Below are positions 2,211 through 56,795 of a stretch of DNA of 64,000 bases, piece after piece. The stretch is from IMG/VR virus record IMGVR_UViG_3300042691_010651. The stretch is one strand, 5' to 3'. The first letter of the stretch is position 1; each line of letters starts with the position of its first letter. The notes below the pieces were generated by a model. The model did no database searches, had not been told where the DNA came from, and saw only the letters and a list, made by a program, of their open reading frames with translations. This DNA comes from a virus (lineage: Duplodnaviria; Heunggongvirae; Uroviricota; Caudoviricetes). The position numbers were made by a program, and so were the translations under genes.

Positions 2211-2534
2211 CTTGTTTGTTGTTTAGATTGTTGTGTTAATAAAATTAGGTAGATTCGATTGTCCTACAATGTTGGAATTAAACTAGCAATTAATAACACC
2301 AGAAGATTATTATTAATCTAGGTAGCCACTCTATCTTAATGCTACTAATCTAATTTTAATATTATAATATCTATTGCAGCTAATACTGATACATTATTAG
2401 TGTACGTATTAGACTGCAAAGATATTAAGTTTTTACTAATCTCGAAAGAATAGTTAATCAATTAAAGTTGCAATACCAGCAATTATTATTGCAGTATGAG
2501 CAACACCGTGGATGAATACTGTGATTTCCATAGT

Positions 2535-2660
2535 CTATAAGTGATTAATTTGCATGTAAAGACCTACTATGATGTAAGTTGCACCAAGAATAGCAATGAT
2601 TCCGACAATAATGTTGCCCACAATTTTGGCTGATTGTTCTTCGTTTGTTAGATTTTTCAT
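2535..2660 (-). CDS. possible 41-aa single-pass membrane peptide
   Basis: ATG ORF below the 60-aa cutoff (MKNLTNEEQSAKIVGNIIVGIIAILGATYIIVGLYMQINHL). Hydrophobic core of about 22 residues. It is the only ORF in the 900-bp stretch 2211-3112. Confidence 0.2.
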   Translation of the reverse strand: MKNLTNEEQSAKIVGNIIVGIIAILGATYIIVGLYMQINHL

Positions 2661-3057
2661 GTTAGTTTTTATGGTTAGTTTCTGTTAATTTATGAGAAAG
2701 ATTGCTAATATATAGATTGATAATATTAGGTTAGTGATAATTCGTGTAATATTGAGGGTTAAAGGAGAGTTATAACGAGTAGCAAAACATAAACATACTG
2801 TTAATCACATATTTTACGTGTTATTCTGTAAAATAGTATAAAATAAAAGGCAATCAAACTAGTCTTGCAAAACTAATTTGATATTTACATTCTTTTATTT
2901 TTTGTATTTTCTGTATAATATCTTAATGCGCAAGATATTATCAATAGCTACGGGGCATAGCATATTCCCAATCTCCTATCAGAGAGATTATTAGTTTTAA
3001 TATATAGCTGATACTATATTTTATTCTAATTGTTTTAATTCGTGTGTCAACGCGTAG

Positions 3058-3105
3058 CCAATAACAATAAAATAGAGAGTTATAACCATTATAGCTACAA
3101 CTCTC
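3058..3105 (-). terminator. putative intrinsic terminator downstream of the 3113..3415 gene
   Basis: Minus-strand RNA would form a GAGAGTT...AACTCTC 7-bp stem (3075-3081 with 3099-3105) followed by a U-rich tract. Confidence 0.35.
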
Positions 3106-3112
3106 ATATTTA

Positions 3113-3415
3113 TTAACCCAAAGTAAATGTTGGTGTTACTCCTTGTGACTTGAGATAGTCCAAGATAGCAAACTTGTTGATGCGACCACAACCAATGTAT
3201 TCAGTTGCATCAGCTTTACGCACACCAGTTGCTCCTGTTTTACTGTTAGTCCATGTAGAACCAGCTTTGTGTACATTAAATGATACAGTTTCTGCTGCAT
3301 CATTTAGTTGAGTCTTTGGAACCCAAATTTCTGCACCTGATGCAGTAGTAACTAATACTAGTTCTTTGCTGTCTTTAACGACATTTTTGCGAGATACGAT
3401 GTTTTCAGTAATCAT
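3113..3415 (-). CDS. hypothetical 100-aa protein with codon use shifted to higher GC (likely highly expressed early protein)
   Basis: ATG start. GC is clearly above the window average. Upstream leader at 3416-3540 is unusually G/C-rich for this genome. Confidence 0.6.
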   Translation of the reverse strand: MITENIVSRKNVVKDSKELVLVTTASGAEIWVPKTQLNDAAETVSFNVHKAGSTWTNSKTGATGVRKADATEYIGCGRINKFAILDYLKSQGVTPTFTLG

Positions 3416-3542
3416 AGTTATTGTTTTTTAAGGTTTTACGATTTATTTTACGAACGAAACTTGATGACGGGTAGTTCCATCCCAAAGTTTTGTAGGGGGC
3501 ATTGTGTGGGGGAGGTACTTCCATCTAAATATACAAACAAAA

Positions 3543-3625
3543 TAAAAAATTATATAAAAAATTTTTTTGATAGGTCTAACCCATATATACGAATCATTTT
3601 TAAAAAATTATAAAAAAATTTTTTT
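3543..3625. promoter_or_regulatory. twin A/T palindromic elements (AAAAAATTATATAAAAAATTTTTTT at about 3543-3567; AAAAAATTATAAAAAAATTTTTTTT at about 3601-3625) in the divergent strand-switch region
   Basis: Two near-identical elements of about 25 bp, each holding a self-complementary A6-7/T7-8 tract, about 58 bp apart. They lie between the minus gene 3113..3415 and the plus gene at 3655. Confidence 0.4.
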
Positions 3626-3654
3626 CCAAGATATATATGTCGTAAACTTACAAT

Positions 3655-3840
3655 ATGATATTTCACTGTAATACTTGTAATAAAAGAGATAAGGTAAAAT
3701 TTACCAATAAAGCTCTTACTATATATGTATCTTGTCAATGTGGTAATAGACAAGTATATTTATCTATAAAAGAGGAATTAAAACCTACACTTCAAAAATA
3801 TACGGTTTATTCTACTCATCAATTAGTTATAAATTTTTAA
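3655..3840 (+). CDS. small zinc-ribbon protein (CxxC ... CxC)
   Basis: 61-aa ATG ORF. First gene of the plus-strand block. Confidence 0.45.
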   Translation: MIFHCNTCNKRDKVKFTNKALTIYVSCQCGNRQVYLSIKEELKPTLQKYTVYSTHQLVINF

Positions 3841-3844
3841 CTCT

Positions 3845-4063
3845 ATGCAACATATATTTAAAGTTGAGCATAATTATGAACATGATATAAGTGACGAAGC
3901 TGGAACTGAATGTCAGTGTAATCCAATAGTTTATATTGATAAAGATAGTGGTGATATGTTTTGTATTCACAATAGTTCTAACTCAATAACAAGTAAAGAA
4001 GAATATTTAGGTTTGATAGAATTAGTGAATGAACAACAAGATGATAATCTTTTGGAATACTAG
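3845..4063 (+). CDS. hypothetical acidic small protein (72 aa)
   Basis: ATG start 4 nt after the previous stop. Confidence 0.45.
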   Translation: MQHIFKVEHNYEHDISDEAGTECQCNPIVYIDKDSGDMFCIHNSSNSITSKEEYLGLIELVNEQQDDNLLEY

Positions 4064-4074
4064 CGATCTTTTTA
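4058..4074 (+). repeat. copy 1 of exact 17-mer TACTAGCGATCTTTTTA (second copy at 47081-47097)
   Basis: Exact 17/17 match read directly. It overlaps the stop codon of 3845..4063 and opens a 220-bp intergenic region. Confidence 0.6.
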
Positions 4075-4143
4075 CTTTTTTACGATTTTTCTTGTTTTGT
4101 ATTTCCACCAGCGTTACATTTGCGAGGGATCGAGCAAATGGAA

Positions 4144-4169
4144 CATGTCCCAGCCGTCCGCAGGACATG
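4144..4169 (+). other. GC-rich hairpin (CATGTCC-12nt-GGACATG) inside a GC-rich intergenic island 4090-4200
   Basis: 7-bp perfect inverted repeat with no T-run after it. Local GC is far above the window average. Confidence 0.3.
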
Positions 4170-4286
4170 AACCTCCACACAGAGAAAAGAAAGTGGATAT
4201 AGGTAGTATATTGGAGAGGTGTGTCCAATTATGAACGAATCAACTAGTTAGTATATGTCTAAGTTACTATACCTTATCGAATAAGT

Positions 4287-5435
4287 ATGCCCAAGAGAAG
4301 AGATTGGAAAAGTATATTTGCAAATAATCCGTTAGATATTGAGAAAGATAAGAGTAAACAACATTGGTTTAGAAGATTAGCAATTCAAGAAAATACTACC
4401 TTTGAATTTGTAAAAAAGATTTATTATGATCATCATTATAAACATAAAGATATAAATGAACATTTAGCATTAGAAGAAGAAGCTAAAGAAGTAGGTATAC
4501 CTATTAAAGATGTTTCTCATTATTGGTACAAAGGAGAACACTTCTCTATATTTACTAAGAACAATCACAAAACTTATTTTACTGTAAGAGATGAAATAAT
4601 TGAGAGTATGAAAGCTCATGCTCCTAATTATACAAACATTAATTATAACTACTCAGTTCTTCAAGAAGCTCATTTACTTGTTATTGATCCAGCAGATATT
4701 CATATAGGTAAACTTTGTCAAGTGTTAGAAAGTGGAGAAGAATATAATGTAGAAATAGCTTTTAATAGAGTACTTGAAGGTTTAGAAGGTTTACTGTCTA
4801 AAGTATCACCATTTGCAATAGATGAAATACTTCTGTTAATTGGTAATGATATACTTCATGTTGATAATGCAAAGCGAACAACTACAAGTGGTACACCACA
4901 AGATACAGATGGTATGTGGTACTCAAACTTTATACGAGCGAAGCAGCTTTATATAAAGATAATAGATAGATTAATACCTTTAGCGAAGAAATTAAGTATC
5001 AAACACAACCCCTCAAACCATGACTTTACTCATGGTTTTTTTCTTGCCGATACAATCCAGAGTTGGTATTCTAAAGTAGATAGTATTGAATTTGAAGTTA
5101 GTATTGCACATAGAAAGTACTTAGCTTATGGTAAGAACTTAATAGGTAGTACACATGGAGATGGTGCTAAAACAGCAGAACTTCCTATTCTTATGGCTCA
5201 AGAAGCTAGTCAACATTGGCATTATTGTATTCATAGATATTTTTACGAACATCATATACATCATAAGAGATCAAAAGAATATGGTTCTGTAACTGTAGAA
5301 TCTGTAAGATCACCAAGTGGTACTGATGGATGGCATCATAGAAATGGTTATCAACATGCAGCGAAAGCAATAGAAGCTTTTTTACATCATAAAGAACATG
5401 GACAAATTGCTAGGTTTACTCACATCTTTTATTAA
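4287..5435 (+). CDS. His-rich protein, possible metal-dependent phosphoesterase (calcineurin/SbcD-like motifs D-x-H-x-G, GND..H, HHIHH)
   Basis: 382-aa ATG ORF. VIDPADIHIGK, LIGNDILHVD, GSTHGDG and EHHIHHKR read like degenerate metallophosphatase motifs. The assignment is tentative. Confidence 0.3.
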   Translation: MPKRRDWKSIFANNPLDIEKDKSKQHWFRRLAIQENTTFEFVKKIYYDHHYKHKDINEHLALEEEAKEVGIPIKDVSHYWYKGEHFSIFTKNNHKTYFTVRDEIIESMKAHAPNYTNINYNYSVLQEAHLLVIDPADIHIGKLCQVLESGEEYNVEIAFNRVLEGLEGLLSKVSPFAIDEILLLIGNDILHVDNAKRTTTSGTPQDTDGMWYSNFIRAKQLYIKIIDRLIPLAKKLSIKHNPSNHDFTHGFFLADTIQSWYSKVDSIEFEVSIAHRKYLAYGKNLIGSTHGDGAKTAELPILMAQEASQHWHYCIHRYFYEHHIHHKRSKEYGSVTVESVRSPSGTDGWHHRNGYQHAAKAIEAFLHHKEHGQIARFTHIFY

Positions 5436-6123: not shown

Positions 6124-6634
6124 ATTAGTTGAAACAATATTAAATTTTATACAACTATTTAAATTTTGGGATGTACTACAACCGTGGGAAGAAGGTATTA
6201 GAGTTAGATTGGGTAAATATCCTGAACCAGTAAAAGTATTAGAAGCTGGATTTCATTGGATTATTCCATTCACCATAGATGTAATACATACAGTATCTAT
6301 TGCAAGACAAGCAACTGAATTAGGATCACAAACTATTACTACTTTAGATGATAAGTGTATTGTTCTTGAAGCAGTACTTACTTATGAAATTGAAGATATA
6401 GAAAAAGCATTATTTAAAGTAGGTGATGAAATAAGTGCAGTTAAAGAAAGAATACAAAGTATAATTAGAAATGAAATTGTTAAGACTAACTTTAATGAAA
6501 TAAATAGTGAAGCACTTGAAGAAAGTATTAACGATAAAAGTAAAAAAGAAGGAAATAAGTGGGGCATTAAAGTAGTTAGTGTATCTATTAAATCTTTAGG
6601 TAAGATAACTAGTATTAGACTTATTAATCAATAA
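6113..6634 (+). CDS. SPFH/band-7 (stomatin/HflK-like) domain protein with N-terminal membrane anchor
   Basis: EEGIRVRLGKY..VLEAGFHWIIPFTIDVIHTVSIARQ...TLDDKCIVLEAVLTYEIEDIEKALFKV...IRNEI follows the SPFH consensus. The track start at 6101 is a TTG. ATG at 6113 chosen. Confidence 0.6.
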   Translation: MLDKLVETILNFIQLFKFWDVLQPWEEGIRVRLGKYPEPVKVLEAGFHWIIPFTIDVIHTVSIARQATELGSQTITTLDDKCIVLEAVLTYEIEDIEKALFKVGDEISAVKERIQSIIRNEIVKTNFNEINSEALEESINDKSKKEGNKWGIKVVSVSIKSLGKITSIRLINQ

Positions 6635-6666
6635 TCAGGATTTAAATATTCCTTCTCCAAAATAGA

Positions 6667-6700
6667 GTTATCAACAAATTGTGAATAAATTGTTGATAAC
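6667..6700. promoter_or_regulatory. operator-like inverted repeat GTTATCAACAA-N12-TTGTTGATAAC
   Basis: 11-bp perfect arms read directly, located in the 157-bp intergenic region upstream of the 6792 gene. Confidence 0.45.
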
Positions 6701-6753
6701 TTCCCTTGCATACTTTATCAAAAAGCAATAAAAATTCCAGTCTTTATTTGTCC

Positions 6754-6772
6754 ATAGACAAAATTTGTCTAT
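6754..6772. promoter_or_regulatory. perfect 19-bp palindrome ATAGACAAA-A-TTTGTCTAT about 20 bp upstream of the ATG at 6792
   Basis: 9-bp arms with a 1-nt centre, read directly. Confidence 0.45.
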
Positions 6773-10327: not shown

Positions 10328-10349
10328 AACGTAATTACTTAATAAACAA

Positions 10350-10376
10350 GGAGCTAGAGATAGCTCCTTTTTTTAT
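10350..10376 (+). terminator. rho-independent terminator closing the early-gene run
   Basis: GGAGCTA-GAGA-TAGCTCC 7-bp stem, followed by TTTTTTT, 23 nt after the stop at 10327. Confidence 0.8.
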
Positions 10377-19008: not shown

Positions 19009-19043
19009 AGTAGAGGAGGTAAAATCTCCTCTACTTATTTTTA
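19009..19043 (+). terminator. rho-independent terminator after the capsid candidate
   Basis: AGTAGAGGAG-GTAAAAT-CTCCTCTACT 10-bp stem followed by TATTTTT. Confidence 0.8.
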
Positions 19044-22390: not shown

Positions 22391-22421
22391 AAAGGAGGAG
22401 AGGAAATTCTCCTCCTTTTTA
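22391..22421 (+). terminator. rho-independent terminator
   Basis: AGGAGGAG-AGGAAATT-CTCCTCCT stem followed by TTTTAC. Confidence 0.8.
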
Positions 22422-22437
22422 CTTTAAAACTACTTAT

Positions 22438-36807: not shown

Positions 36808-39800
36808 ATGAAAGCTTGTCCTAATACTAATTCTCTAGAATGGAAGTTATTAGAAAAGAAAGCAGGATTGTATGATGCTGCTTTTGATCTTTTTATACAA
36901 AATGGAGAAGAAACTCCTTCTATTGAACAAATAGAAGAATATTTTAAAGGTAAGGAACTTATACCTACTGATAAAGAAGGTTTAATTACTTATCTTAAAT
37001 CTAAGAAAGCTCCTAATGGAGCTAATCTTTTTAGAGAAGAAGAAGGACAACTAAAAATTGTAAATAAGAAAGGATCAGACTATAATCTATCTAATGCTTA
37101 CAAAGTACTAGGTAGTATCAATTCTCAATTTCCTGGAAAAGTAAAATTATCTAAAGATAGATTTGGTAAAATAGTTGTATCTGTTATAGAAGGTCAATTA
37201 CCTTTATTTGATCTACCATCTACTAACACTACAAACAATCTATTACTTCCAGGATTTAAATCTTTCTATCAACAAAAAGAAGTAGTAGATGTTTTATCTA
37301 GTAGTGTTTTAGCTTACTATAGAGATAACAAACAAGAGAAATTATTGTATAGTAAAGCTATTGAATCAATTAAACAGAATATAACAGATATAAACAAATC
37401 TGATCCTAGAGAAGTTTATCAATTAATACTTAATAATTTAGATGCTTTATCTTTAGAAGTTAGAGATAAGCTACAAGCATTAAGATTAATAGCAAAACCT
37501 AAATTAGAAGGAACATCTTTAGATAAATCTACGGAAGTTACAGAAGATGAAGAAGGAGTTGAAGGAGCAGAAGTAGTAGGTTCACAAGGTCAAGATGAAT
37601 GGGTATTTCAATATGACTCAAAAGATAATGCATTAGAAGCTATTAAAAAGTTTTTAGCATTTATTCCTAAAACAGTTTATAACAAATCAGATGATAGTTT
37701 TAAACTTGTTGAAAGTATAATTCCTAAGCAACCAGTCTTTTTATCATACGATGAAGTATATGAACAATTAAAATCTGTACTTGCTGGAGTAGATAATACT
37801 TGGGAAGCTATGGAAGAAGAATTAAGGTTAAATGCAAAAGGTAAACCTTTTATTAACACCTTATTGAAAAAGATAAACAATTATAAAGAAGATAAAGAAC
37901 AACTAAAACGTCAATTTGTATCTACCATGAGTTCTTCTTATGGTAACTTTAAAACTATAATTGTAAAAGATAGAACAGATAGAGAAGGAAATATACTTGG
38001 TCAATATTTTAATGTAATAGATACTGATAGAACTTCTATTGAAAAAACTATTATATCTAAATGGCAAGGAGATTTCAAAAGATCAAATCTATTTGATGAA
38101 GTAGATGGAGATTTGATTTTATCAAAAGAGAAGGTAGAAGAATATCGTAAGAGATTAAAAGAAATTAAAGAAGAACCTACATTAGAAAATGTAAAAGAAG
38201 TATTAGAAAAGATAGGTATTACTATTTCAGATAATACTTTAGATAGATTAGTAAATGGAGTTGTAAATAGATTATCAATTAATCAACAATTTACTTCTGA
38301 TTCAGGTTTATTTAAATTAATTGATCTTAGATTAGGAGCTAAAGAAGTAAAAGAAGGAGAAGATGAATTTAACGAATTAGATGAAGAAACAATTGTTAAT
38401 GATCCTACTGTAAACAATTCAGCAATAAGAGCATTAGCAAAATTAGATTCTTATAATAACGAAAGCTATTACTCTAATACATTTAAAGATGGAGAAGGTA
38501 ATACAGTTTATTCCTATACATTTAATAAATTCTTAACTAAAGAATTTAACAAGATACTTAATGATGATAATCATGTAAAATCATTATTAGATATTACTTT
38601 TAACAAACCGATATTTAACGGAGAAACTCCTATATATGATACTTGGTTATATTTAAGAGATACTAAACCAGAATTATTTAAAGAGATATTTACTATTTCA
38701 CCTTTAGATACTTTAAAAGTAGGTAAAGATGGAACTAAGTTAAGTTCTATGTCAGACTTAGACTTAGAAATAACTCAACTTGCTTTAATGCAAAATTCTG
38801 GAAGTAGAAAGAAAGGTCTTGGAGGAGAAGATACAAAAGGAACTAGAATCATAAAATATCTTATAACTGTTCCTGATAAAACTACATCTTATGTAGTACA
38901 AGGAACTGGAATAGATGTTAAATTATTTTTTGATAAAGAAGGATATAGAATAGGAAAGAGAACAATAGATGCGTTATATTCTGTAGTAGCATCTGAGCAC
39001 AATCGAATACTTTCTCAACAAGCAAGAAAAAGTGAAAACAAAGCATACAATAAAGGTTCTAATTTTTTCTTTTTCTTTCCTACATTAAATGATCTAATAT
39101 TTAATAAAGATGAAAATGGTAAAAAAACTACAGTTAAATTACCTACTGATAAAATAGGAGATAAGACAGTAGAACAAATCATAAAAGAAGAATTAAATCG
39201 CATCATAAAAAATGATGTATCTAACAAATTACAACAATGGAAAGAATTAGGTATTAGTTCTCAAACATTAAAGTTAGTAGATTATAATTACTTACAAAAG
39301 ATACTTGCTTCTCAAACAGATGATCAAAATAATCAATTAACATTAGCTGCTGCTGATTATATTGTTAATAGTATATTAGCTAAATTTAATTCTCATCAAA
39401 CTTTTATTGATGATCCTGCTGTTTATTTCAAAACTGATGTAGCTACAACTTGGGATAACGTTGGTAAAAGATTAACTAATCTTATCGCACCTTTTAAAGA
39501 AGGTATGATAGATTCAACTAATAAATATTTTTTATCTGTAAAATTAGCTGATATAGAATCATCTGCATTAAACAATGCACAACTAGCTGCAAGATTGTCA
39601 AAATATTATGAAGATAATAATATTGGACTTCCTTACGATGCTATTAAAGGAACAGATGCTCAAGAATATATTACTTTAACTGAAAAATTAAAAGTAATGT
39701 ATATGTATGGAGAAATCTCTACTAAATTATATAATGATCTATTAGAGAAAATCAAAACTCAAGGAAATAATTTAGTACTTACAAAAGATGAATTAGAAAA

Positions 39801-42800
39801 AATATTATTTAGTTCTGATAAACCTGTATATTCTTCAAGAATAGTCTCTAAAGAAGATGATACAATATATAGAGAATATATTAAATCTTCATCATTACCA
39901 TTAATTCCTCAATTTACTCAAGGTTTAGAAATAGATAAACTTAGAGTAGCTATGGAGAAATTACAAAATTCTTCTAGTAAATCTGTACGTGCTGCATTTA
40001 ATACTGCTACTAAATTAGGAGGTAAGCAAAGTATTAATATCTGGAATACAGATGGAACTATAAAAGATGATTTAGATTTAACATCTTATGCAGTAGAACT
40101 TGATAGAAGTAACTTTGGTATTCAACAAGAAATACCTTATGATGAAACTAAAGATGAAACTGTAAGATCAACTCAAGTACTTAAATTATTATTTGATAGT
40201 ATTGAAGAAGTATCTGGTTTTAGATATGATAATAAAGTATATAGTGGACAAGAATTAAAGAAAATATATGATGATTTACAAAATCAAATATATGAAGATG
40301 GTTTGAAATCTATTGAAAAAAGAATAGTAAAGAATGGACAACTTAATAAACCAGAACTAATAAAGCTATTAAAAGGAGAAGGTATTAAAAGAAATTATTC
40401 TCCTGCTCAAATAAGTTTCTTAATAAGTAACTTAGAAAATACAGATTTTGAAATACCTTTTTGGGCACACACAAATAATGATAAAGAGCAATCAATGCTT
40501 ACTTCTATCTGGACTAACAAAGTCTTGAAGCAAAAGATGCCTGGAGGTTCTTATGTACTTGTATCAGAAGAAGGTATGCAAGGAAAATCAGTAGGCGCTT
40601 TATATTCTCAATCTTATGATCCTGCTACTGGTTTAAAACCTATGAGGATTGTTTATAAAAAAGATACTGAACAATTAGAAGAAGAAGAATATAAAAAATT
40701 ATCTAAAGCTGATAGAGAAGGATATAGAGAAATTGTAAAACCTGCTCAAGTTATAATGTCTTGGAACTTGAGAGATCAGAATGGAAAGTTATTAAATCAA
40801 AATGATTATATCACAACAGATGAACAAGGTAATAAATTCCTAGATACTAAAAAAATACCTAAAGAATTATTAAATCAATTTGGATTTAGAATACCAAATC
40901 AAGGACATAATTCTATGTCATTGATAGAAATAGTTGGATTCTTACCAGATATATATCAAGGTGTAGTAATTGCAAGTAGAAATTTTGTAACTCAAATGGG
41001 TTCAGATTTCGATGTTGACAAGCTATATGTATATAACTATTATTTAAATGCAGATAAAGAAGGTAATCTTTCTAAACAAGATGATGCAAAAAATAAATTA
41101 GTTGATATACATAAATCAGTATTATATAACAAATCAGTATTTGAATCAGTAGTTAAACCTCTTGATTTAGGAAAAATTAGTTATGAAACTGCTGATGGCA
41201 AGAAAGGTGGTATAGCTGAAAAGATAAAAAAACAAGAGAATACTAATAAAGAAAATTATCTTAATCCTGATTATTCTAAAAACAAATATTTACAATCAGT
41301 AGATGGTAAAGCTATGGTTGGTATTACTTCTGTAAGTAATACATTTAGTACGCTATTACAAGGAAAAGAAATATCCTTACAAAAAGTAGTAGTTATAAAT
41401 GATGAAAAACAATATGTACCAAATTATATAATTTTTGAGGTAGACGGTAAAATAAAAGAATTTTCAGATTTAAGTTCTGCATTTACATATTCTGGAAGAA
41501 AGAAAAATGAACTTCATCAATCAATTCAATCTGCATCTGTAGATAATGGTAACAATCCTATATTATCTTATATTAACGTAAATCCTGCAACATCATCTGC
41601 ATTAACATTAATGCTTGATTTAGGATTAGAAGAAGATGAGATATATGGATTACTTGCTCAACCAATACTTAAAGAATATACAAAAAGAGTAAAATTAAGT
41701 AAAAGTAAGTTACAAGATGAAGTAAAAAAAGAAGAAGATATATTACTTGATCTTATAAAAGAAAATAGTGTACTATACAACGAATTAAGTACTAAACTTA
41801 AAATGGATGATCTAGAAAATTATCCATTATCTAAAAATCATTTTAATCAAGTTTTATTTAATGAAGGTAAAACTGACTTAACTAATGAAGAAATTCAAGT
41901 ACTAGTTTTACAAAAGTTTGCACAACTTAAAGAAATAGGAGATAAGTTATCAAGATTTCAGAATCTATTAAATATAGAATCTAAAGGAGTCGGTAAAAGT
42001 TTATTAGATTTATCTGATAGAAGAACTTCTATTGATAAATTATTTAACTCAATTCAGTTTAAAAATATAAACAAATTAGTTGGTGAATTTGATGAAGGAG
42101 AATTGACTCCTAATACTATTACTGGTTATGCACTTACAAATTCAATATTTGCTGCTGATGATGTAATTAAGAACTCTAACTTAATGCCTTACTCAACAGA
42201 GGAATTTAAAAAGTTACTAAAACAATACGAGAGTATTACAAACAAAGAACCTAATACTGATCAAAAATATGAAGTATGGAAAGCTATAAAAGCTTTTATA
42301 TTCTCTAACTACTTTGATCCTACTGAAAGAACTAGAATATTCTTTGATGGTAAAGATAACAAATCATTAAATACAAGAATAAATGCTTTAAGAAAAACTA
42401 AACTTAAAAATAATCAATTTATTTTAAGATTAGATTTATCTAAAGTAGATTTAAGTGGAAAAAATCCTTCTTATGTATTTTATAATTCTTCAAAAGAAGC
42501 TGATATAGAAGAATTAAATACTTACAAGAGTTTCTATGAATTAGTATATAATGAAGATCCAGAGATAGTATCAATAGGACAAGATTTAATTAGATATTTT
42601 TATCTTAATGGAGGTATAACTAACTCGAAAGATTGGGGTAGATTTATAGATGCTTCTATGCTTACCAACATAGGATTATCAGAATTTGCAAAAACAGTAA
42701 ACTTTTCTATACCAGAAACTTATGGTTATAAACCAGAAATTTCTGATGTACTATTACAATTATTTCAACACAAACCTTATTTAACAGTTAGATTAAATAA

Positions 42801-45800
42801 TACTGCTGATGTTAAAATAAAAGACGGAGTAATAACTATTAATAAAGAAAAAATACCTAGAGAATTAATATCTGCTAGTTCTACAAAACCTGTAGTTGTA
42901 TTTAATTTAAATAAGAAATTATATAAACTAGATAATAGAGATGAAGATGGTAATTATATCTATCGTTCTATTCCAACTTTAGGTAAGAAATTCTTTAATG
43001 AATATCAACAAGACAAAGTAGATAATCCTGTAGATTTTCAAATAAGAGAAACTGTTAATAATCCACAGACTTATCCTAATCCTTTTGTAGAAGATGAGTT
43101 TGATGGTATATTAGATGTTACTGTATCAGAAGCATTATCTAATATAAACAATAATAAATATCATAAAGAACTAGTTAATCTATTTAAGAAATTAGAAGGT
43201 ATTATAGGAAATATTAAAATAGAATCTACAGAAGAAGTAGGTTACTTTGGTAGATGGGATCAAAAGACTATCGGAGTAAGTTTAAAAGAATTAGAAGATA
43301 AAGGAAGATTAAATAGAGAAACTGTAGAATCTACAATATTAAAAGAGATTGTACATGTTCTTAATACAAAACTATTTAGATCAGAATTTACTCCTACACC
43401 AGAGCAAATACAAGCTAGAGCAGCTATAAATACTTTATACAATTCTATAAGAGAAAGAGTATTATCTGGAGAACTTACTCAATGGAATAGTGCTGATTTT
43501 ATTAAATACGAAAGTATATTAGCAAAACTTAGAAGTAAAAAAGGAGTAACAGATCAAGAGAATGAATTTTTACTTACTAATAAAGCAAAGTTTTATGGCT
43601 TAACTAATGTAGAAGATTTCTTACATGATGCTTTATTACAAGAAGAATTTAGAGATTTATTAAATTCTATACCTTATGATGCTGATAAATCTTTACTTGA
43701 TAGATTTATAGATTTAATATCTGAGATACTTAATAAGTTTGGTAAATTAGTTAATATTAATAAAGGATCAGCTCTTGAAGAAGCATTTGTTCAGTTAATT
43801 AAGTTAACAAATGAAACAAATCAACAGTCAGATAATACAACTCAAGATGAACAAATTTTCTATGATTTAGCAGAAAAGAAAATCAAGAAAGAAGAACAAA
43901 AGAATTATGAAAAAGTAATTAAAGATTTTGAAGTAAGAGAAAAAAGAATTAGTGAAGATATAACTAAAGCAAATGCAAACAAAGATAAAGTTTTAGCTAC
44001 TACACTTACTAATAGATTAAAAGAAATAAGATTAGAAAAAGAAGAACTAATTGCAGATAACACTTTAGAAACTTTAATTAAGTTTGCTAATAATGATTTT
44101 AAATATATAGAATCTATTTTAGCAAAACCAGAGTTAAATGAAAGTGAATTAGAAAGAAGTTCTTTATACTTAGGTACTTGGTCTAATATAGATAACATAG
44201 ATATTTATAAAATTTTATCTAGTTATGATGTTAGAACTGAATCACCTAAAGCAATTATATTTAAAGAAATAGCTGAAAAAGCTAAAAGATTAAATACAAG
44301 AATTGAAGAAGCAAAAATAGAAGTAGAAATACAATTAGTGCAAGATTTATTAAAAAGAAATGTATCAAGAGATCAATTAACTGTACATTCTGATGTAGGA
44401 TATACTCAATCAAAAACTAGAGATATATCTACATCTAATAATGTAATTCTTGATGTAGTAGATCAATTAATTCGTACTGCTGATTTTGCAACAACTACAG
44501 AATTAAATAAACTAATTAAACGAGTAGAAGATTTAACTGAAAAATTATCTAAATTAAACATTACTTCAAGAGAGGATTTTGCTAGAGTATTTGGTCAAGT
44601 AGATGAAGATGGACAACTAACAGGTTCAGTAGTAAGTGCTTTATCTTATGAATATTTTAGAGTTAGAGATTTACTATTAGAGAACATAAAAGATGCACCT
44701 AATCCTGGAGCTAAGAAAAAAGCATCAGAAAAGTATTATAATTGGATAAAAGAAAATCATATTATAGTTGATCCAAACAAATTGTATCAAGAAGATAATG
44801 ATGGTATATTTATCTATAAACCAGATGCAAAATATCTACAAGCATTAGAAAAAGAATTAGGTGAAGATTATCAAAAAGTAATTAAAGAAGCAAAAGAAAA
44901 GACAGAAGAATATAATGATTTGTTAAGATTGCAAATAGAAGCTACTAAAGATAATCCTGATGCAGCTAGAATATTAGAAACATGGAAACTAGAAAATAGT
45001 CCATTAATCTACATTGATAACTTAGTAAATGGATTAACTATTAGAAAGAGTGAAGGAAAAATTATATATAATCATGGATGGCAATTTATATCTAAAAGAG
45101 CTAAATCTCAATGGGAAGATTCTAAATATAATGAACTTCAAAAAAATGATGATTTAAAAGAATATTACGATTGGTATGTATCTACAATGAAAGAGTTGAA
45201 TGAATACTTACCGTATAATGTTAGAAAGAATCTTAAATCAACTGATATTCCTTCAATAAGCAAGAAGTTACTTGAGGAGTTACATGATACTGGTATAAAC
45301 AAATATGCAAATAGAACTTGGAGTGCTTTATTAGAAGAACTTAGTGTTAAGAAAAATGAAGTACAAAAACTTGTAAATCCAGAGACAGGTAAAGAAGAAA
45401 AACAATTTAGTTTTCAATACTTAGAAGAATTAGATCCAAAAGATAAATCTTATAATCTTACTCAAGTAATTAAATTATTTGCAGCACAAGCAATTGGATA
45501 TAAACATAAATCTCAAATTGAAGATAAGATAAGACTTTCTCAATCTATATTAGATAATGCTTTAGAAACTGATAAAGTTGGTAAAACTACAACTACAAAA
45601 GGATTAGCTAATTTAAGAAGTCAACTTAATTATGCAATAGATGCAGGTTTATATGGAATAAAGAAAGATAATAAAGAAGGTAGATCAAATATTCAATTTA
45701 TAACATCAGCAGATAAAGAAAAATTAGCAAGAGAAATACAAAAAATTGAAGCATCTGATATGACAGATGTAAAGAAAGCAAATGCTATAAGTAAAGCTAC

Positions 45801-47079
45801 AGAAAAATATACTAGAGTTTTAACTTGGTCAAAAGTAGGTGATACTTTATTACAATATACTCAACTTAAAGGTATGGGTTGGAATATATTTGGTGGAGTA
45901 AACAATGCTTTATTTGGTCAATTAGCTAATGCTAACTGGGCAGCAACTGGAGTTGATTATTCAGATGATGATTTACAAAAAGCAATTGGTACAATGCTAA
46001 TTGCTCAATCTCCAAATGATTCTTCTACAAGAAAAAAGGTTGAATCTTTAATGATTAAATTTAATACAGTAAAACAACTTAGAGATAAAATATATAGTGC
46101 TACAACTAACTATAACAAAGCTAGAAAAGGACTTCAAAAATTATCTCCATATGAGTTATATGCACAAGGTGAATATTTTGTACAAGGTCAAGTTATGGTG
46201 GCATTACTTAATGCTACTAAAGTAAAAGTAACAGAAGATGGAGTAGAAAAAGAAATAAGCTTATTTGAAGCATTTGATGAAAATGGTAATTGGAATACTG
46301 AAAAATTTGGAGAAAATTCAGAGTATTCAGAGTTAGGAGCTAACACTTTAAAATTCAAGTTCAAGTTAGATAGCTTATTGAAAAAGATACATGGTAACTA
46401 CGATCCTAATGCTAATATAGCTATTAATGAGAAGTTTGTAGGTCGTGCTTTAATTCAATTTAGAAGATGGATTCCAGAAGGTGTTGCTCAAAGATTTGAT
46501 GGAGAAAAGTATGATAACTATCTAGAAAGAACAACTAAAGGTAGATACTTAACATATTACGATTTAGGTTGGAAAAATTCACTAAAAACTTTATTGAAAT
46601 TAGCTATTACTAGAGGTAAAGATTCTTCTTTTAAAGATTTAAATCTAGAAGAAGATAATCTAAATATAGTAAAAGAAAACATGAAGAAGAATCTTAGAGA
46701 GATTTATTTCAAACTTTCTATGATGGGTATGTTCATGTTATTATCTGGACTAGACGATGATGATGAATGGACTAGAAGAGCTAAAAACTATAGTCTTAAC
46801 ACAATACTTAGATTACAAGATGATATTGAGTTTTATTATAGTCCTATGGCTTTTGATAATATAACTAGATCAGCACTTCCTGTATCAAGTATAATTGTAG
46901 ATTTTGCTAAATTTAGTGACAGTTTTGTAGATACATTAGAAGGTAATGGAGAATATAAATCTGGTAAACATTCTGGTGATAGTAAGTTGTTATGGAAAGG
47001 AGCTAAGTTGTTACCTCTTACAACAGCAGTTACTAACTTAATTAATAAAGGAGAAGCTCAAGAAAGTTTTAGAAAATAA
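36808..47079 (+). CDS. giant (3423 aa) virion-associated RNA polymerase-like protein with a multisubunit-RNAP β′ double-psi-beta-barrel catalytic motif
   Basis: Residues about 1361-1404: FRIPNQGH ... (33 aa) ... MGSDFDVDKLYVY. This matches the β′ NRAPTLH ... NADFDGDQMAVH module, with a DxDxD metal triad at 41005-41019. Gene size and position after the structural genes are typical of crAss-like ejected RNAPs. Confidence 0.6.
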   Translation: MKACPNTNSLEWKLLEKKAGLYDAAFDLFIQNGEETPSIEQIEEYFKGKELIPTDKEGLITYLKSKKAPNGANLFREEEGQLKIVNKKGSDYNLSNAYKVLGSINSQFPGKVKLSKDRFGKIVVSVIEGQLPLFDLPSTNTTNNLLLPGFKSFYQQKEVVDVLSSSVLAYYRDNKQEKLLYSKAIESIKQNITDINKSDPREVYQLILNNLDALSLEVRDKLQALRLIAKPKLEGTSLDKSTEVTEDEEGVEGAEVVGSQGQDEWVFQYDSKDNALEAIKKFLAFIPKTVYNKSDDSFKLVESIIPKQPVFLSYDEVYEQLKSVLAGVDNTWEAMEEELRLNAKGKPFINTLLKKINNYKEDKEQLKRQFVSTMSSSYGNFKTIIVKDRTDREGNILGQYFNVIDTDRTSIEKTIISKWQGDFKRSNLFDEVDGDLILSKEKVEEYRKRLKEIKEEPTLENVKEVLEKIGITISDNTLDRLVNGVVNRLSINQQFTSDSGLFKLIDLRLGAKEVKEGEDEFNELDEETIVNDPTVNNSAIRALAKLDSYNNESYYSNTFKDGEGNTVYSYTFNKFLTKEFNKILNDDNHVKSLLDITFNKPIFNGETPIYDTWLYLRDTKPELFKEIFTISPLDTLKVGKDGTKLSSMSDLDLEITQLALMQNSGSRKKGLGGEDTKGTRIIKYLITVPDKTTSYVVQGTGIDVKLFFDKEGYRIGKRTIDALYSVVASEHNRILSQQARKSENKAYNKGSNFFFFFPTLNDLIFNKDENGKKTTVKLPTDKIGDKTVEQIIKEELNRIIKNDVSNKLQQWKELGISSQTLKLVDYNYLQKILASQTDDQNNQLTLAAADYIVNSILAKFNSHQTFIDDPAVYFKTDVATTWDNVGKRLTNLIAPFKEGMIDSTNKYFLSVKLADIESSALNNAQLAARLSKYYEDNNIGLPYDAIKGTDAQEYITLTEKLKVMYMYGEISTKLYNDLLEKIKTQGNNLVLTKDELEKILFSSDKPVYSSRIVSKEDDTIYREYIKSSSLPLIPQFTQGLEIDKLRVAMEKLQNSSSKSVRAAFNTATKLGGKQSINIWNTDGTIKDDLDLTSYAVELDRSNFGIQQEIPYDETKDETVRSTQVLKLLFDSIEEVSGFRYDNKVYSGQELKKIYDDLQNQIYEDGLKSIEKRIVKNGQLNKPELIKLLKGEGIKRNYSPAQISFLISNLENTDFEIPFWAHTNNDKEQSMLTSIWTNKVLKQKMPGGSYVLVSEEGMQGKSVGALYSQSYDPATGLKPMRIVYKKDTEQLEEEEYKKLSKADREGYREIVKPAQVIMSWNLRDQNGKLLNQNDYITTDEQGNKFLDTKKIPKELLNQFGFRIPNQGHNSMSLIEIVGFLPDIYQGVVIASRNFVTQMGSDFDVDKLYVYNYYLNADKEGNLSKQDDAKNKLVDIHKSVLYNKSVFESVVKPLDLGKISYETADGKKGGIAEKIKKQENTNKENYLNPDYSKNKYLQSVDGKAMVGITSVSNTFSTLLQGKEISLQKVVVINDEKQYVPNYIIFEVDGKIKEFSDLSSAFTYSGRKKNELHQSIQSASVDNGNNPILSYINVNPATSSALTLMLDLGLEEDEIYGLLAQPILKEYTKRVKLSKSKLQDEVKKEEDILLDLIKENSVLYNELSTKLKMDDLENYPLSKNHFNQVLFNEGKTDLTNEEIQVLVLQKFAQLKEIGDKLSRFQNLLNIESKGVGKSLLDLSDRRTSIDKLFNSIQFKNINKLVGEFDEGELTPNTITGYALTNSIFAADDVIKNSNLMPYSTEEFKKLLKQYESITNKEPNTDQKYEVWKAIKAFIFSNYFDPTERTRIFFDGKDNKSLNTRINALRKTKLKNNQFILRLDLSKVDLSGKNPSYVFYNSSKEADIEELNTYKSFYELVYNEDPEIVSIGQDLIRYFYLNGGITNSKDWGRFIDASMLTNIGLSEFAKTVNFSIPETYGYKPEISDVLLQLFQHKPYLTVRLNNTADVKIKDGVITINKEKIPRELISASSTKPVVVFNLNKKLYKLDNRDEDGNYIYRSIPTLGKKFFNEYQQDKVDNPVDFQIRETVNNPQTYPNPFVEDEFDGILDVTVSEALSNINNNKYHKELVNLFKKLEGIIGNIKIESTEEVGYFGRWDQKTIGVSLKELEDKGRLNRETVESTILKEIVHVLNTKLFRSEFTPTPEQIQARAAINTLYNSIRERVLSGELTQWNSADFIKYESILAKLRSKKGVTDQENEFLLTNKAKFYGLTNVEDFLHDALLQEEFRDLLNSIPYDADKSLLDRFIDLISEILNKFGKLVNINKGSALEEAFVQLIKLTNETNQQSDNTTQDEQIFYDLAEKKIKKEEQKNYEKVIKDFEVREKRISEDITKANANKDKVLATTLTNRLKEIRLEKEELIADNTLETLIKFANNDFKYIESILAKPELNESELERSSLYLGTWSNIDNIDIYKILSSYDVRTESPKAIIFKEIAEKAKRLNTRIEEAKIEVEIQLVQDLLKRNVSRDQLTVHSDVGYTQSKTRDISTSNNVILDVVDQLIRTADFATTTELNKLIKRVEDLTEKLSKLNITSREDFARVFGQVDEDGQLTGSVVSALSYEYFRVRDLLLENIKDAPNPGAKKKASEKYYNWIKENHIIVDPNKLYQEDNDGIFIYKPDAKYLQALEKELGEDYQKVIKEAKEKTEEYNDLLRLQIEATKDNPDAARILETWKLENSPLIYIDNLVNGLTIRKSEGKIIYNHGWQFISKRAKSQWEDSKYNELQKNDDLKEYYDWYVSTMKELNEYLPYNVRKNLKSTDIPSISKKLLEELHDTGINKYANRTWSALLEELSVKKNEVQKLVNPETGKEEKQFSFQYLEELDPKDKSYNLTQVIKLFAAQAIGYKHKSQIEDKIRLSQSILDNALETDKVGKTTTTKGLANLRSQLNYAIDAGLYGIKKDNKEGRSNIQFITSADKEKLAREIQKIEASDMTDVKKANAISKATEKYTRVLTWSKVGDTLLQYTQLKGMGWNIFGGVNNALFGQLANANWAATGVDYSDDDLQKAIGTMLIAQSPNDSSTRKKVESLMIKFNTVKQLRDKIYSATTNYNKARKGLQKLSPYELYAQGEYFVQGQVMVALLNATKVKVTEDGVEKEISLFEAFDENGNWNTEKFGENSEYSELGANTLKFKFKLDSLLKKIHGNYDPNANIAINEKFVGRALIQFRRWIPEGVAQRFDGEKYDNYLERTTKGRYLTYYDLGWKNSLKTLLKLAITRGKDSSFKDLNLEEDNLNIVKENMKKNLREIYFKLSMMGMFMLLSGLDDDDEWTRRAKNYSLNTILRLQDDIEFYYSPMAFDNITRSALPVSSIIVDFAKFSDSFVDTLEGNGEYKSGKHSGDSKLLWKGAKLLPLTTAVTNLINKGEAQESFRK

Positions 47080-47080
47080 T

Positions 47081-47097
47081 TACTAGCGATCTTTTTA
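47081..47097 (+). repeat. copy 2 of exact 17-mer TACTAGCGATCTTTTTA
   Basis: Begins 2 nt after the stop of the giant gene and opens a 70-bp intergenic region before the fibre-module genes. Confidence 0.6.
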
Positions 47098-47150
47098 ACG
47101 CCTATTGCCCAAACAACGCTTTTTAACTATATTTTCAGAAAATATGAAAT

Positions 47151-47858
47151 ATGGCATTGACAAGAATTTGGGGAATAACAAAAACAACAGTAGATATTTC
47201 TCAAGCTGTTTTTGTTGATAGTACTGTATATGGTACACCAGAGTTAAATAGAAATCAAGAAGCTCATTATGTACTAATAGCTAAAATGGATGAAAATCAA
47301 GTATTATCATTCATTTCTGGAATTGACAATTCTGCACCTTTAACAGCAACTAATTATAGTTTTGCAAATTCTGTAGATGGAGCATATCGTATGTTTCAAT
47401 TTAATCCTCCTTTTTATTCTGGTACAGGAACATATACTAAAGAAGTATCTTCTGGAGGTGTAGTATCTGTATATGCTGATATTGTTTGGCATCCTGGAAC
47501 TGCAAAATTCTATAAAGCAATAGCTACTAGTTTTACAGCAATAGAACCTGGAGTTACTGTTGGATGGGCAACATCTTGGCAAGCTGATCCTGACTTTACA
47601 TTAGAAGTATCTAATACTAAGACTAATACTTTTATTAAAGATGATATTATAACATTTAGATATGAAGATTGTCTTGTAGAATATATTGATGAAACTACTG
47701 ATGATATATTATGTGGATTATGTACAAGTTGGGATAAACTATTTCCAACATTATCTGCACAATTATTATTAGATGGAGCTAATTCTAATAATTGGCAAAA
47801 CAAACAAACTAGATCAGAAATTATAATTAAAGCTGCAACTAAACAATTCTGCTGCTAA
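47151..47858 (+). CDS. hypothetical tail-associated protein (235 aa)
   Basis: ATG start. First gene of the fibre module. Confidence 0.55.
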   Translation: MALTRIWGITKTTVDISQAVFVDSTVYGTPELNRNQEAHYVLIAKMDENQVLSFISGIDNSAPLTATNYSFANSVDGAYRMFQFNPPFYSGTGTYTKEVSSGGVVSVYADIVWHPGTAKFYKAIATSFTAIEPGVTVGWATSWQADPDFTLEVSNTKTNTFIKDDIITFRYEDCLVEYIDETTDDILCGLCTSWDKLFPTLSAQLLLDGANSNNWQNKQTRSEIIIKAATKQFCC

Positions 47859-49575: not shown

Positions 49576-52500
49576 ATGGCAAATAGATTAGTAATACGAG
49601 GTGGTCAAAAGTTACTTGGAACAGTTGGTTCTGGTACTGGCGATCCTATATTAACAAGAGATGCTACAACCAAAGAAGTTGGTGAAATTCCAGCTATTGA
49701 TCCTTCTGTATATTTAAGTACAGGACTTAATTCTGGACAATTATTTGTAGGTAATGCTTCTAACTTAGCTCAAGCTAGAACAATTACAGGAGCAATATCT
49801 TTTAATAATACAGGAGTAGCTTTGTTAGGTTTAGATATAATTACTGACGCTAATATCTTTAGCGGAGCAGGTATATCTTACAGTAAATTAAATTTGGCAA
49901 ATCAAATAGTTAATAATGATATTTCATTATTTGCTAGTATTACTAGAACTAAATTAGCTTCTGGTAACATTAACAGGATACTTATTAATAACGGTGCTGG
50001 AGTATTTTCAGAACAAGCTGCAATTACAGGAAATAGATTACTCATATCAGATGCTAATGGATTACCAATAGCTTCTAGTATTACAGATACAACAGCAGCT
50101 TTTCTTGATCCAACTTCTTCTGTTCAAACACAATTAAATAATAGACTTTTATTTAGTTCAACAATAACTCCTGTTGAAGGAGATTTAGTATATTATAACG
50201 GCTCAACTTGGAATAGATTACCAAGAGGTACAAGTGGACAGTATTTAGCTGCTACTGCAAGTACTATAAACTGGGTAACTGTTCCTAATGGTATGCCTGT
50301 TGGAGGTACTACTAATCAATATTTAAAGAAAAATTCTGGAACAGATTTTGACACTTCATGGGATACTTTATCAATAAGCGATATAACCGACATAACAGCT
50401 AGTGCTGCTCAAATTAACGTATTAGCAAGTGGATTTTATGATGCTACATCTTCTGTTCAAACTCAAATTAATTTAAAACAAAATGCTTCATTATCATTAG
50501 GCTCTATTTGGGTTGGTAATTCATTAGGATTAGCTGATCAATTAACACCTGCTACAAATGGACAAGTACTTACTTTAGTAGGTGGTGTTCCTGTTTGGCA
50601 AACTATATCTGGTACAGGTACAGTAACAGCTATTAGTGGTAGTGGAGGAACTACAGGATTAACATTAACTCCTGGAGTTGGTACACCTATTACATCTTCT
50701 GGGACACTCAGTTTAGGAGGTACATTGATAGCAGCTAATGGAGGTACTGGATTTGCTTCTTACGGAGTAGGTGATATACTATATGCTAATACAACAACTA
50801 CTTTAGCTAAACTAGCTGCTGGAACTAATACCCATATATTAACACTAGCTGGTGGTGTGCCAACATGGTCTGCTCCTATCACTCAAATCTCTGGACTCAC
50901 CTCTGGTAGAGTAACGTTTGCAACGTCTGCAACTACGATAGGAGATGACGCTAACCTTGTTTGGGATGGGGCTAACAAACGACTTGATCTGCGGACAGCT
51001 TCCAGAATAAGGTTTCAACGAAATGACAATTTGTTGAATTTTGAAATGGGGGTGATCGACCCAATAGCTACAAATGATTTCATTATCAACGCAGTTACTT
51101 CTCCAACTGGTTTTCAATTTCAACAAGCAGGCACTACAACCTTTGGAATCACCAACCTTCAAAGATTTAACTTTAACAATAAAGTATTTTTCAACACCTT
51201 CACCGGATCGGCTCTTGCTGATTTTCAAAGCACCAATCAGGGTCTAGTATTGCCGAGGGCTTTAAGATCGGCAATTACAACGCCCGAAAATGGTATGTTG
51301 ACGGTAGATACCAACGTGCCTTATTTCCATAACGGTACAAGTTGGATTAATTTATTAGGTGGTGGTGGAGGTATAACTAATACAGCAGCTACCAATGAAA
51401 TACCAAAAAGTAATGGCACTAATATAGTTCCAAGTGGAATATTTACAACTACATCAGGAATCATTACTACCGGAATTTGGAATGGAACCGCTATTAATCC
51501 TAATTATGGTGGAACAGGTCTTACTGGATTAGGATTACCTCTACAACAAATTAGAGTAAATGGAGCAGGTACAGCATTTGAATACTTTAGTCCGCCAGCA
51601 GGGACGAGTTTATCTGCTCTTACAGGAGGAGTTTCAAATAACTCTCTTGATAATGGTGGAACACACACTTGGTCATGGAACTCATTGACCAACACAAAAG
51701 GATTCCTAATAAGCTCTAACTCTCCAAACGCATCAGTAAATGCACAAAGATTATTCAATGTTGAATTAAGTGGAGCAAACTTTAATAGTTCAGAGATAAC
51801 CTATGCAGCAAGTGTATCTAATACACACACTGGTACTTCCTCAACAAACGTAGCCCTTAATTTATTAGCAAGTGGAGGAACTGTAAATAGAGCTTTGAAT
51901 ATTGCTGCTGGTGAGATTGCTCTTAATGAATCAGCAGGAACTAGCGGTCAGGTTTTAACAAGTCAGGGAGCTAACGCTACTCCTATATGGGCTACACCTT
52001 CTGGTGGAGTATCTGGACTAACTTCTGGTAGAGTAACCTTTGCAACTTCTGGGACAACGATAGGTGATGACGCAGCATTTACTGTTGATGCCACAATAGG
52101 GAGGTTAAATGTAATAAAATCCCAAAGCTCGGGAACTAACATAGTATTAGCAAACACCTCAACAGCTAGTTCCTCTAGTGCAACATTTGTTGCGGCAAAC
52201 GATGCTGGTCTCCTAAACGTTCTTCAATTTGGTGTTTTAGGGATAAACTCTCCAACATCAGGTATATTTGCGCCAGATATATCGTTAGTTCGATCTACTG
52301 TATTAGGCGGTCTAAACATAGGCTCTACAAATAGCGCTCAAGTATCTTTTTACACAAATAATGTAAGACGCGGTGGTTTTTTAGCAGGTGGAAATTTTGA
52401 CTTTGTAAACTCCGTTTCTGTTAATGGGAGTACAGCCATAGGCGCAAGCACTGCTTTAGATATACAAGGCACAACAAAAGCTTTAAAAATTGGATCAGCT

Positions 52501-56419: not shown

Positions 56420-56795
56420 TATGGATAAAGTTTTAAAACTAGAGCAAGAAATGGAAAAACTAAATGATTCTTTAGTTAGTATTGAAGATATTCTTGCTAA
56501 ACTTAATGAAAATATTAAAAAACTTAATATAGGTATATATGGTGATAAAGAAAATGACCATATAGGAGTTATAGAAAGACAAAGACAATTGGAAGATAGA
56601 ATATTTCAATTAGAAAAAAAGTTACAAAATCAAGAAGATAATAATAGAAAAGAACAAGCAATAAGTATTGCAAAAAAAGATTTAAAAGTTAATTGGTGGA
56701 ATATTATTAAATGGATAGCTGGATTTATAAGTCAAGGAGCTATATGGTATTTAATTTTTAAAGGAATTTTACAACCTAGTGATCGTTTGAAGTAA
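56409..56795 (+). CDS. coiled-coil protein with C-terminal TM helix (holin, antiholin or spanin-like candidate)
   Basis: C-terminal WWNIIKWIAGFISQGAIWYLIF hydrophobic helix. Confidence 0.4.
   Translation: MNFNMDKVLKLEQEMEKLNDSLVSIEDILAKLNENIKKLNIGIYGDKENDHIGVIERQRQLEDRIFQLEKKLQNQEDNNRKEQAISIAKKDLKVNWWNIIKWIAGFISQGAIWYLIFKGILQPSDRLK

Follow-up and report, generated by a model that had tools for sequence, protein, structure and literature searches.

A 17-nucleotide word repeated ahead of two predicted promoters of a crAss-like phage is a candidate upstream promoter element

The window (the whole stretch of viral DNA analysed, 64,000 nt) is assigned to an uncultured crAss-like phage: its terminase, portal and capsid proteins match crAss-type families, and the capsid protein is ~29% identical to those of crAss-like phages. 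One gene encodes a 3423-aa protein with a DFDVD motif at residue 1400 and a match to 6VR4, the structure of the phi14:2 virion RNA polymerase gp66 (E = 1.8e-25); the protein is ~1200 residues longer than gp66. The GC content of 28% and the similarity of an exonuclease of the window to those of Flavobacterium phages point to a host in Bacteroidota. No close annotated phage was found, and there were no relatives among GTDB genome contigs. The same phage recurs in several metagenomes at 99.98-100% identity, contigs so nearly identical that they are uninformative on constraint.

Two loci of the window are considered here (Table 1). At the first, a 72-aa gene, whose C-terminus is shorter than and unlike those of its homologues in L138 and L140, is followed by a predicted promoter (P1), a GC-rich island and a DNA repair exonuclease gene. 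The exonuclease gene is absent at the matching place in relatives, and hundreds of unrelated phages carry genes ~60-66% identical to it. No homologues were found between 100% and 66% identity, and the gene reads as horizontally acquired cargo. The 63% match lies in an unrelated phage without the upstream gap. What fills the slot after P1 and the island differs by relative: L140 has a VanY peptidase gene there, and L138 has others. L138 also has a GIY-YIG nuclease gene (3176-3814) where the rightward array starts, a place taken by small genes in the window. Further into the window, the 130-nt gap ahead of the gene at 6765 contains an inverted repeat, AGTTATCAACAAATT / AAATTGTTGATAACT, at 6666-6701; its arms are kept in L140 (2574-2627), there with a T-run after them, and it may serve as operator or terminator. 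At the second locus the virion RNA polymerase gene is followed by a second predicted promoter (P2) and the tail-fibre module. The 1275-aa fibre gene contains direct repeats (50860-50951 / 51982-52073 and 51307-51346 / 52546-52585) of 76-88% identity at ~1.1-1.2 kb spacing, in the most GC-rich part of the window (37-38%), which suggests a duplicated domain.

Table 1. Features of the two loci in window coordinates; promoter boxes and start sites are predictions.
Feature	Position	Strand	Remarks
72-aa gene	3845..4063	+	homologues L138 4005-4238, L140 1444-1800; stop codon inside copy 1
17-mer copy 1	4058..4074	+	~-69 to -53 from predicted P1 start; its TAG is the stop of the 72-aa gene
P1 -33 element CTTGTT (TTG 4092-4094)	4091..4096	+	20 nt past copy 1 TCTTT
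P1 -7 box TACATTTG	4115..4122	+	exact TAnnTTTG match; 20 nt past TTG
GC-rich island	4123..4235	+	predicted P1 5' leader or non-coding transcript
Invariant 15-mer GCCGTCCGCAGGACA, mini-hairpin GTCC-GCA-GGAC	4153..4167	+	identical in window, L140, L138, L187
DNA repair exonuclease gene	4287..5435	+	downstream of P1 and island; putative lineage-specific cargo
3423-aa virion RNA polymerase gene	36808..47079	+	DFDVD; 6VR4 match; PHROG virion structural protein
17-mer copy 2	47081..47097	+	~-59 to -43 from predicted P2 start; core CTAG-NN-ATCTTT kept in relatives
P2 -33 TTG	47105..47107	+	exactly 10 nt past copy 2 TCTTT; same column in 8/9 sequences
P2 -7 box TATATTTT	47128..47135	+	TAnnTTT invariant; 20 nt past TTG
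235-aa gene	47151..47858	+	conserved; first of tail-fibre module; served by predicted P2

The gene ends at both loci carry the same 17-mer, TACTAGCGATCTTTTTA. An earlier note on this DNA had reported two exact copies at gene ends, and both were re-found on the + strand: the TAG within copy 1 (4061-4063) ends the 72-aa gene, copy 2 begins 2 nt past the TAA (47077-47079) of the polymerase gene, and the intergenic gaps that they open extend 223 nt to the gene at 4287 and 71 nt to the gene at 47151. No further copy occurs in the window on either strand with up to three mismatches allowed. The figure of 3e-5 that had been given for a chance second occurrence is a per-word expectation and proved too optimistic. 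The window contains 18 repeated 17-mers in ~14 exact-repeat clusters of at least 17 nt, mostly AT-rich and coding, and Markov simulations of 64 kb yield 3.6-5.5 clusters of this kind per window. Among the simulations, 41-74% contain a repeat of at least 17 nt that has five or more G/C, and ~3% contain one that has a CpG as well. Because of these cluster counts and simulations the repeat by itself is only mildly unlikely and constitutes weak evidence; that it is more than chance follows from the location of both copies in intergenic DNA, which makes up ~2-5% of the window, and from the conservation of copy 2 in relatives.

Beyond the window, the core of the word, [C/T]TAG-NN-[A/G]TCTTT, is kept in related phages at the P2 gap, and exact matches to the 17-mer in IMG/VR were at chance level and uninformative (29 matches, all inside genes of ~7 unrelated contig lineages). 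On the + strand of the window the exact core is found only at the sites of copies 1 and 2; a third exact match is antisense and inside coding sequence. Degenerate copies with at most one mismatch are not enriched, with 24 found versus 40.6 expected from shuffles. Apparently conserved minus-strand matches at 20897 and 13379 were rejected as antisense coding sequence. A site at 56776 (CTAGTGATCGTT) ahead of a TATATTTG box was rejected because its spacing to a -33 is wrong. A relaxed match, TATATATTAGCAATCTTTC, lies on the minus strand at 2690-2708, inside a block (2683-2862) conserved with L138 (2448-2615); this block belongs to a 900-nt region without a convincing gene, between leftward genes (2211-3112), and phi14:2 has a long, highly transcribed non-coding region at a comparable place.

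The P2 gap was aligned with those of eight relatives (L123, L124, L126, L127, L128, L129, L131 and L132), which were reached through homologues of the 235-aa protein at 50-62% identity to the window's protein. The nine sequences align without gaps from the motif through the -7 box and share the architecture [C/T]TAG-NN-[A/G]TCTTT, 10 nt, TTG, 20 nt, TAnnTTT, 13-16 nt (~14), ATG. TAG, TCTTT, one T of the -33 and the TA..TTT of the -7 are invariant in all nine, as are the distances from motif to -33 (10 nt) and from -33 to -7 (20 nt), whereas the distance from stop codon to motif (3-9 nt) and from -7 to ATG (13-16 nt) varies. Because the promoter spacings are fixed and the stop-codon spacing is not, the motif goes with the promoter rather than with the 3' end of the gene before it. 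P2 conforms to the Bacteroidota sigma-A type, with TA..TTT in 9/9 sequences and TTG 20 nt upstream of the -7 box, and the predicted start (~47140) lies 11 nt upstream of the ATG. Promoters of this type have TTTG/TTG at -33, ~19-21 nt ahead of the -7 box TAnnTTTG, and initiate ~5-7 nt past that box. Promoters read by sigma-A in Flavobacterium psychrophilum have a -33/-7 consensus with the -7 box at -12 to -5, and the boxes of P1 and P2 have the same geometry (PMC9723704). When the whole P2 region is used as a profile, each genome yields one significant site, and copy 1 is matched over the 17-mer alone (E = 1.8); what is common to the two loci is therefore the upstream word and not the promoter.

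The position of the word immediately after genes could also suggest a signal for the 3' end of the transcript, for termination or RNA processing, that acts on RNA or on the elongating polymerase; the earlier note had listed such a role. Both copies begin at most 5 nt from a stop codon and the word ends in a T-run, as would be seen at an intrinsic terminator. The most distant relative, L110 (41% identity), keeps CTAGTATTCTTT with its TAG as the stop codon and has a canonical terminator in place of the -33/-7 pair in the same gap, an arrangement that counts against reading the word as an upstream promoter element. A terminator role is nevertheless not supported. Neither copy forms a hairpin (minimum free energy 0 to -2.5 kcal/mol, both strands), the T-run is not preceded by one on either strand, no terminator-like sites were found at the copies, and RNAalifold predicts no pairs in the P2 gaps. 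It is the distance to the stop codon that varies, while that to the promoter boxes is fixed. The terminators of this phage also look different: canonical hairpins with T-runs occupy three other gaps (~10349-10375, 19010-19042 and 22392-22425). We consider a 3'-end signal improbable. The three terminators sit inside the long rightward array, one of them just past the capsid gene, and the downstream genes of the array may need read-through or antitermination.

The P1 regions of relatives were obtained through terminase homologues. Some terminase homologues in the clade (proteins P0104, P0114 and P0154) have a length of ~1070 aa and contain intein/LAGLIDADG domains (PF14528, PF14890). The full consensus has only eight matches in 128 kb; the TTG-N20-TACATTTG of P1 is among them, and no other match lies between genes with a + strand gene after it. 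Transcription is predicted to start at ~4127. The form CTTG(AC)-N18-20-TnnnTTTG is conserved in L138, L139, L140 and L187. L187, whose terminase is 62% identical, carries TTAGCACTCTTT 21 nt ahead of the matching TTG, within ~75 nt that are plainly orthologous to the P1 of the window, and the P1 site is thus older than this phage. L140 has a partial motif, ATCTTTT, 30 nt upstream, and in L138 and L139 the motif is absent upstream of P1. This absence, together with a frequency in relatives of one site per 37-43 kb sampled, indicates that the motif is not a general promoter-class signal.

The uneven conservation at P1 raises the possibility that only copy 2 is functional, as part of a conserved promoter after the polymerase gene, and that copy 1 is a neutral by-product of copying or recombination, or a coincidence. 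L138 and L139 retain the P1 promoter without the motif, the P2 profile extends to copy 1 over nothing but the 17-mer, and the 72-aa gene seems to have had its end remodelled. The copies agree at 17/17 positions, including some that vary among relatives, as expected of a recent copy; this identity points to either copying between the sites or joint constraint, and in so far as it reflects copying rather than selection it counts against a shared upstream element. Set against this are the diverged TTAGCACTCTTT of L187 at the same place (21 versus 20 nt from the P1 -33), the ~0.08 exact core matches per strand expected from base composition, the ~5e-5 chance of a match within 40 nt of a given promoter, and an offset from the P2 geometry of 10 bp, one helical turn. 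We therefore regard a function confined to copy 2 as unlikely.

The earlier note had proposed a phage-specific promoter among the roles of the word. The copies do mark the predicted starts of transcription units; a stand-alone promoter read by the virion RNA polymerase is not supported, because each copy lies at a fixed distance upstream of a -33/-7 promoter of sigma-A type. A related reading makes the motif itself a core promoter element, either the -33-like box of an overlapping promoter (TCTTT-N20-TAnnTTTT) or a site for the virion polymerase or a phage-modified host polymerase. Five relatives have TACCTTTT 20 nt past TCTTT (TCTTT-N20-TACCTTTT), and copy 1 has at the same N20 distance TTGTTTTG, which resembles phi14:2 -7 boxes such as TAGTTTTGTA, so that the N20 geometry recurs at both copies. 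The crAss-like virion polymerase, moreover, has no known promoter motif (preprint 10.1101/2020.03.07.982082). However, the CTTG at 4091-4094 is the ortholog of the relatives' CTTGAC -33 boxes and not a -7 box, TCTTT differs from the TTTG of Bacteroidota -33 boxes, and there is no TA box at that place in the window's copy 2 or in L123, L127 and L131. A tail-fibre module is also not an expected early target of a virion polymerase. A core-element role appears quite unlikely on this evidence.

Finally, the location of both copies at the borders of gene modules might suggest that a DNA enzyme acts at the word, for example a site-specific nuclease, a packaging enzyme or one that recombines module borders. 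The cargo after P1 varies (exonuclease here, VanY peptidase in L140, other genes in L138), as do the fibre genes downstream of P2 among relatives. But the word has neither dyad symmetry nor flanking repeats, the window has no adjacent nuclease gene, a strict register with promoter boxes would not be needed, and two direct copies 43 kb apart would favour a lethal deletion. We consider this explanation highly improbable.

The reading that we prefer, with a probability that we put at a little over one half (about 0.55), is that the 17-mer is an upstream element, UP-like or an activator site, common to two host-type promoters. It would act as double-stranded DNA upstream of the -33 box at both promoters, each of the Bacteroidota sigma-A type TTG-N20-TAnnTTTG. 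P2 would start the tail-fibre module right after the virion RNA polymerase gene, and P1 the long rightward gene array, with the GC-rich leader transcribed first. The core would span ~-57 to -46 at P2; at P1 it would be displaced upstream by one helical turn, to ~-67 to -56. Both placements fall in a region where the alpha subunits of RNA polymerase (at UP elements) or class I activators contact DNA; at 10 and 20 nt from the -33 it would face the same side of the helix at both promoters. The word may raise or time transcription alike at the two promoters, directly or through the binding of one candidate protein, an activator or a repressor. That the boxes are active promoters with these start sites, and that a protein binds the word, we infer from the sequence. 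Our confidence is moderate because no binding protein was found, the motif is rare and the overlapping-promoter reading fits five relatives. A Pfam search found no DNA-binding domain in the small neighbouring genes, nor in the gene that occupies the place of the IHF-like gene of phi14:2.

The closest parallel comes from the same phage group. The middle and late promoters of phi14:2 are extended and tripartite and are read by the host RNA polymerase (Drobysheva et al., preprint 10.1101/2020.03.07.982082). In promoter sequences taken from the phi14:2 genome record, an A-tract abuts CTTGAC and is followed by an extended -7 box, TAnnTTTGTA. Like these, the promoters described here combine a host-type -33/-35-like box, a -7 box and a third upstream block, are placed ahead of structural and middle genes, and hold their three conserved blocks (motif, TTG, TAnnTTT) in fixed register; the P1 of L138 (aaaaaaCTTGAC...TTTTTGTA) looks alike. 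The difference lies in the upstream block, which in phi14:2 is an A-tract directly at the -33 box and here is a specific word, CTAG-NN-ATCTTT. The invariant positions of this word include G and C, a distance of 10 or 20 nt separates it from the -33, and it was found at only one or two promoters per genome (two in the 64 kb of the window). Neither the motif CTAG..ATCTTT nor the 15-mer of the island is present in the phi14:2 promoters and its non-coding left region.

More distant comparisons place the word among known kinds of signal. UP elements of bacterial promoters, such as that of E. coli rrnB P1, are A/T-tracts between -40 and -60 that bind the C-terminal domain of the alpha subunit and increase the strength of the promoter; to our knowledge they have not been defined in Bacteroidota. 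Copy 2 resembles them in its position (-59 to -43), its T-rich distal half and its fixed register with the core promoter, and the word is 71% A/T; unlike A/T-tracts, however, the word has an invariant CTAG and C, with both G and C among its invariant positions, and copy 1 (-69 to -53) lies outside the usual range. Class I activator sites, as for CAP at -61.5, and phage activator boxes, as the T4 MotA box and the Mu C sites, are the other model: a short, specific, helix-phased word upstream of a few promoters of one phage, here in two placements 10 bp apart. The word differs from these in lacking dyad symmetry, and the MotA box replaces the -35, whereas the -33 is retained here. The virion RNA polymerase of phage N4 uses hairpin promoters with a 5-7 bp stem and a 3-nt loop in single-stranded DNA. 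This phage likewise carries a giant virion RNA polymerase, but the crAss-type enzyme is unrelated to that of N4, and the 17-mer cannot form a hairpin: with its flanks it is unstructured as single-stranded DNA on both strands. The word, read as a promoter-associated cis element, is a regulatory signal of a familiar kind rather than a new mechanism.

Between copy 1 and the exonuclease gene lies the GC-rich island, which the earlier note had described correctly: GC content reaches 49% in 4100-4199 over a background of ~28%, and the hairpin CATGTCC-N12-GGACATG is present at 4145-4170 (-7.9 kcal/mol as DNA, z = -3.0). As the predicted start is near 4127, the island would form a leader of ~160 nt ahead of the exonuclease ATG. 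Blocks of it are conserved in L140, L138 and L187, and partly in L139. The long CATGTCC hairpin is specific to this phage, and only its inner part, GTCC-GCA-GGAC, is conserved, within a 15-mer that recurs in L140 (1913-1927), L138 (4546-4560) and L187 (1081-1095) between differing flanks. This invariant 4-bp mini-hairpin is the sole pairing that RNAalifold finds in the island, without covariation, and single-sequence RNA folds were no better than shuffles. There was no Rfam match for the window or the island at the gathering score, with chance-level matches only at E up to 10, no tRNA in the window or the island, and no similarity to the loci of exonuclease relatives.

The 15-mer may extend well beyond this group of phages. 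In a scan of IMG/VR, exact matches to a 16-mer numbered 22, compared with 19 for a reversed-sequence control; the real matches include AT-rich contigs and places without a long ORF, whereas those of the control are all in GC-rich coding DNA. Two unrelated contigs from the scan have features of their own: L149 carries a Pistol ribozyme and a DUF805b RNA (at 3487-3546 and 6264-6298), and in L163 (2091-2115) TTAGGG telomere-like repeats begin immediately after the 16-mer. The word GCG[AT]1-2AGCG occurs within 150 nt on the same strand at 10/72 15-mer loci and at 0/19 control loci, and the 15-mer is found in non-coding DNA of unrelated phages of 2 kb to 167 kb, with such GCGWAGCG mini-hairpins on its own strand. 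In L228, a Microviridae genome, the 15-mer is preceded by a hairpin similar to the one at the G4 complementary-strand origin. The 15-mer and the GCGWAGCG words are both GNA-triloop mini-hairpins, a very stable class of DNA hairpin noted in the origin regions of phiX174 and G4. No occurrence of the 15-mer string was found in the literature, and BLAST of a word of this length in annotated phages is below detection. The 15-mer could be a signal of wide distribution in single-stranded DNA, for priming or as an origin. Alternatively, the crAss-type virion polymerase, an enzyme that needs a denatured template in vitro, could use it as a single-strand promoter. The 15-mer is an unproven lead to a single-stranded-DNA signal, outside the main verdict on the 17-mer.

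A combined explanation, in which a dedicated regulator has its operator in the 17-mer and the 15-mer of the island is a single-stranded-DNA signal, is unlikely as a whole. The regulator, encoded by the phage or the host, could couple the promoter of the rightward array to that of the tail-fibre module, and co-evolution with it would keep the variable positions of the word identical within a genome. Returning to the 17-mer, the finding is in all likelihood real and functional. The advance is modest, since it refines a type of signal already known, and the more interesting lead may perhaps be the conserved 15-mer mini-hairpin of the island next to copy 1. For crAss-like phages, promoter architecture had been described in one cultured phage only; in this case sequence comparison by itself defines a compound promoter that includes a specific upstream word and is conserved in a freshwater/environmental clade. 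This word aids the annotation of transcription units in uncultured Crassvirales, and its 12-nt core offers a handle for finding the factor that times tail-fibre expression.
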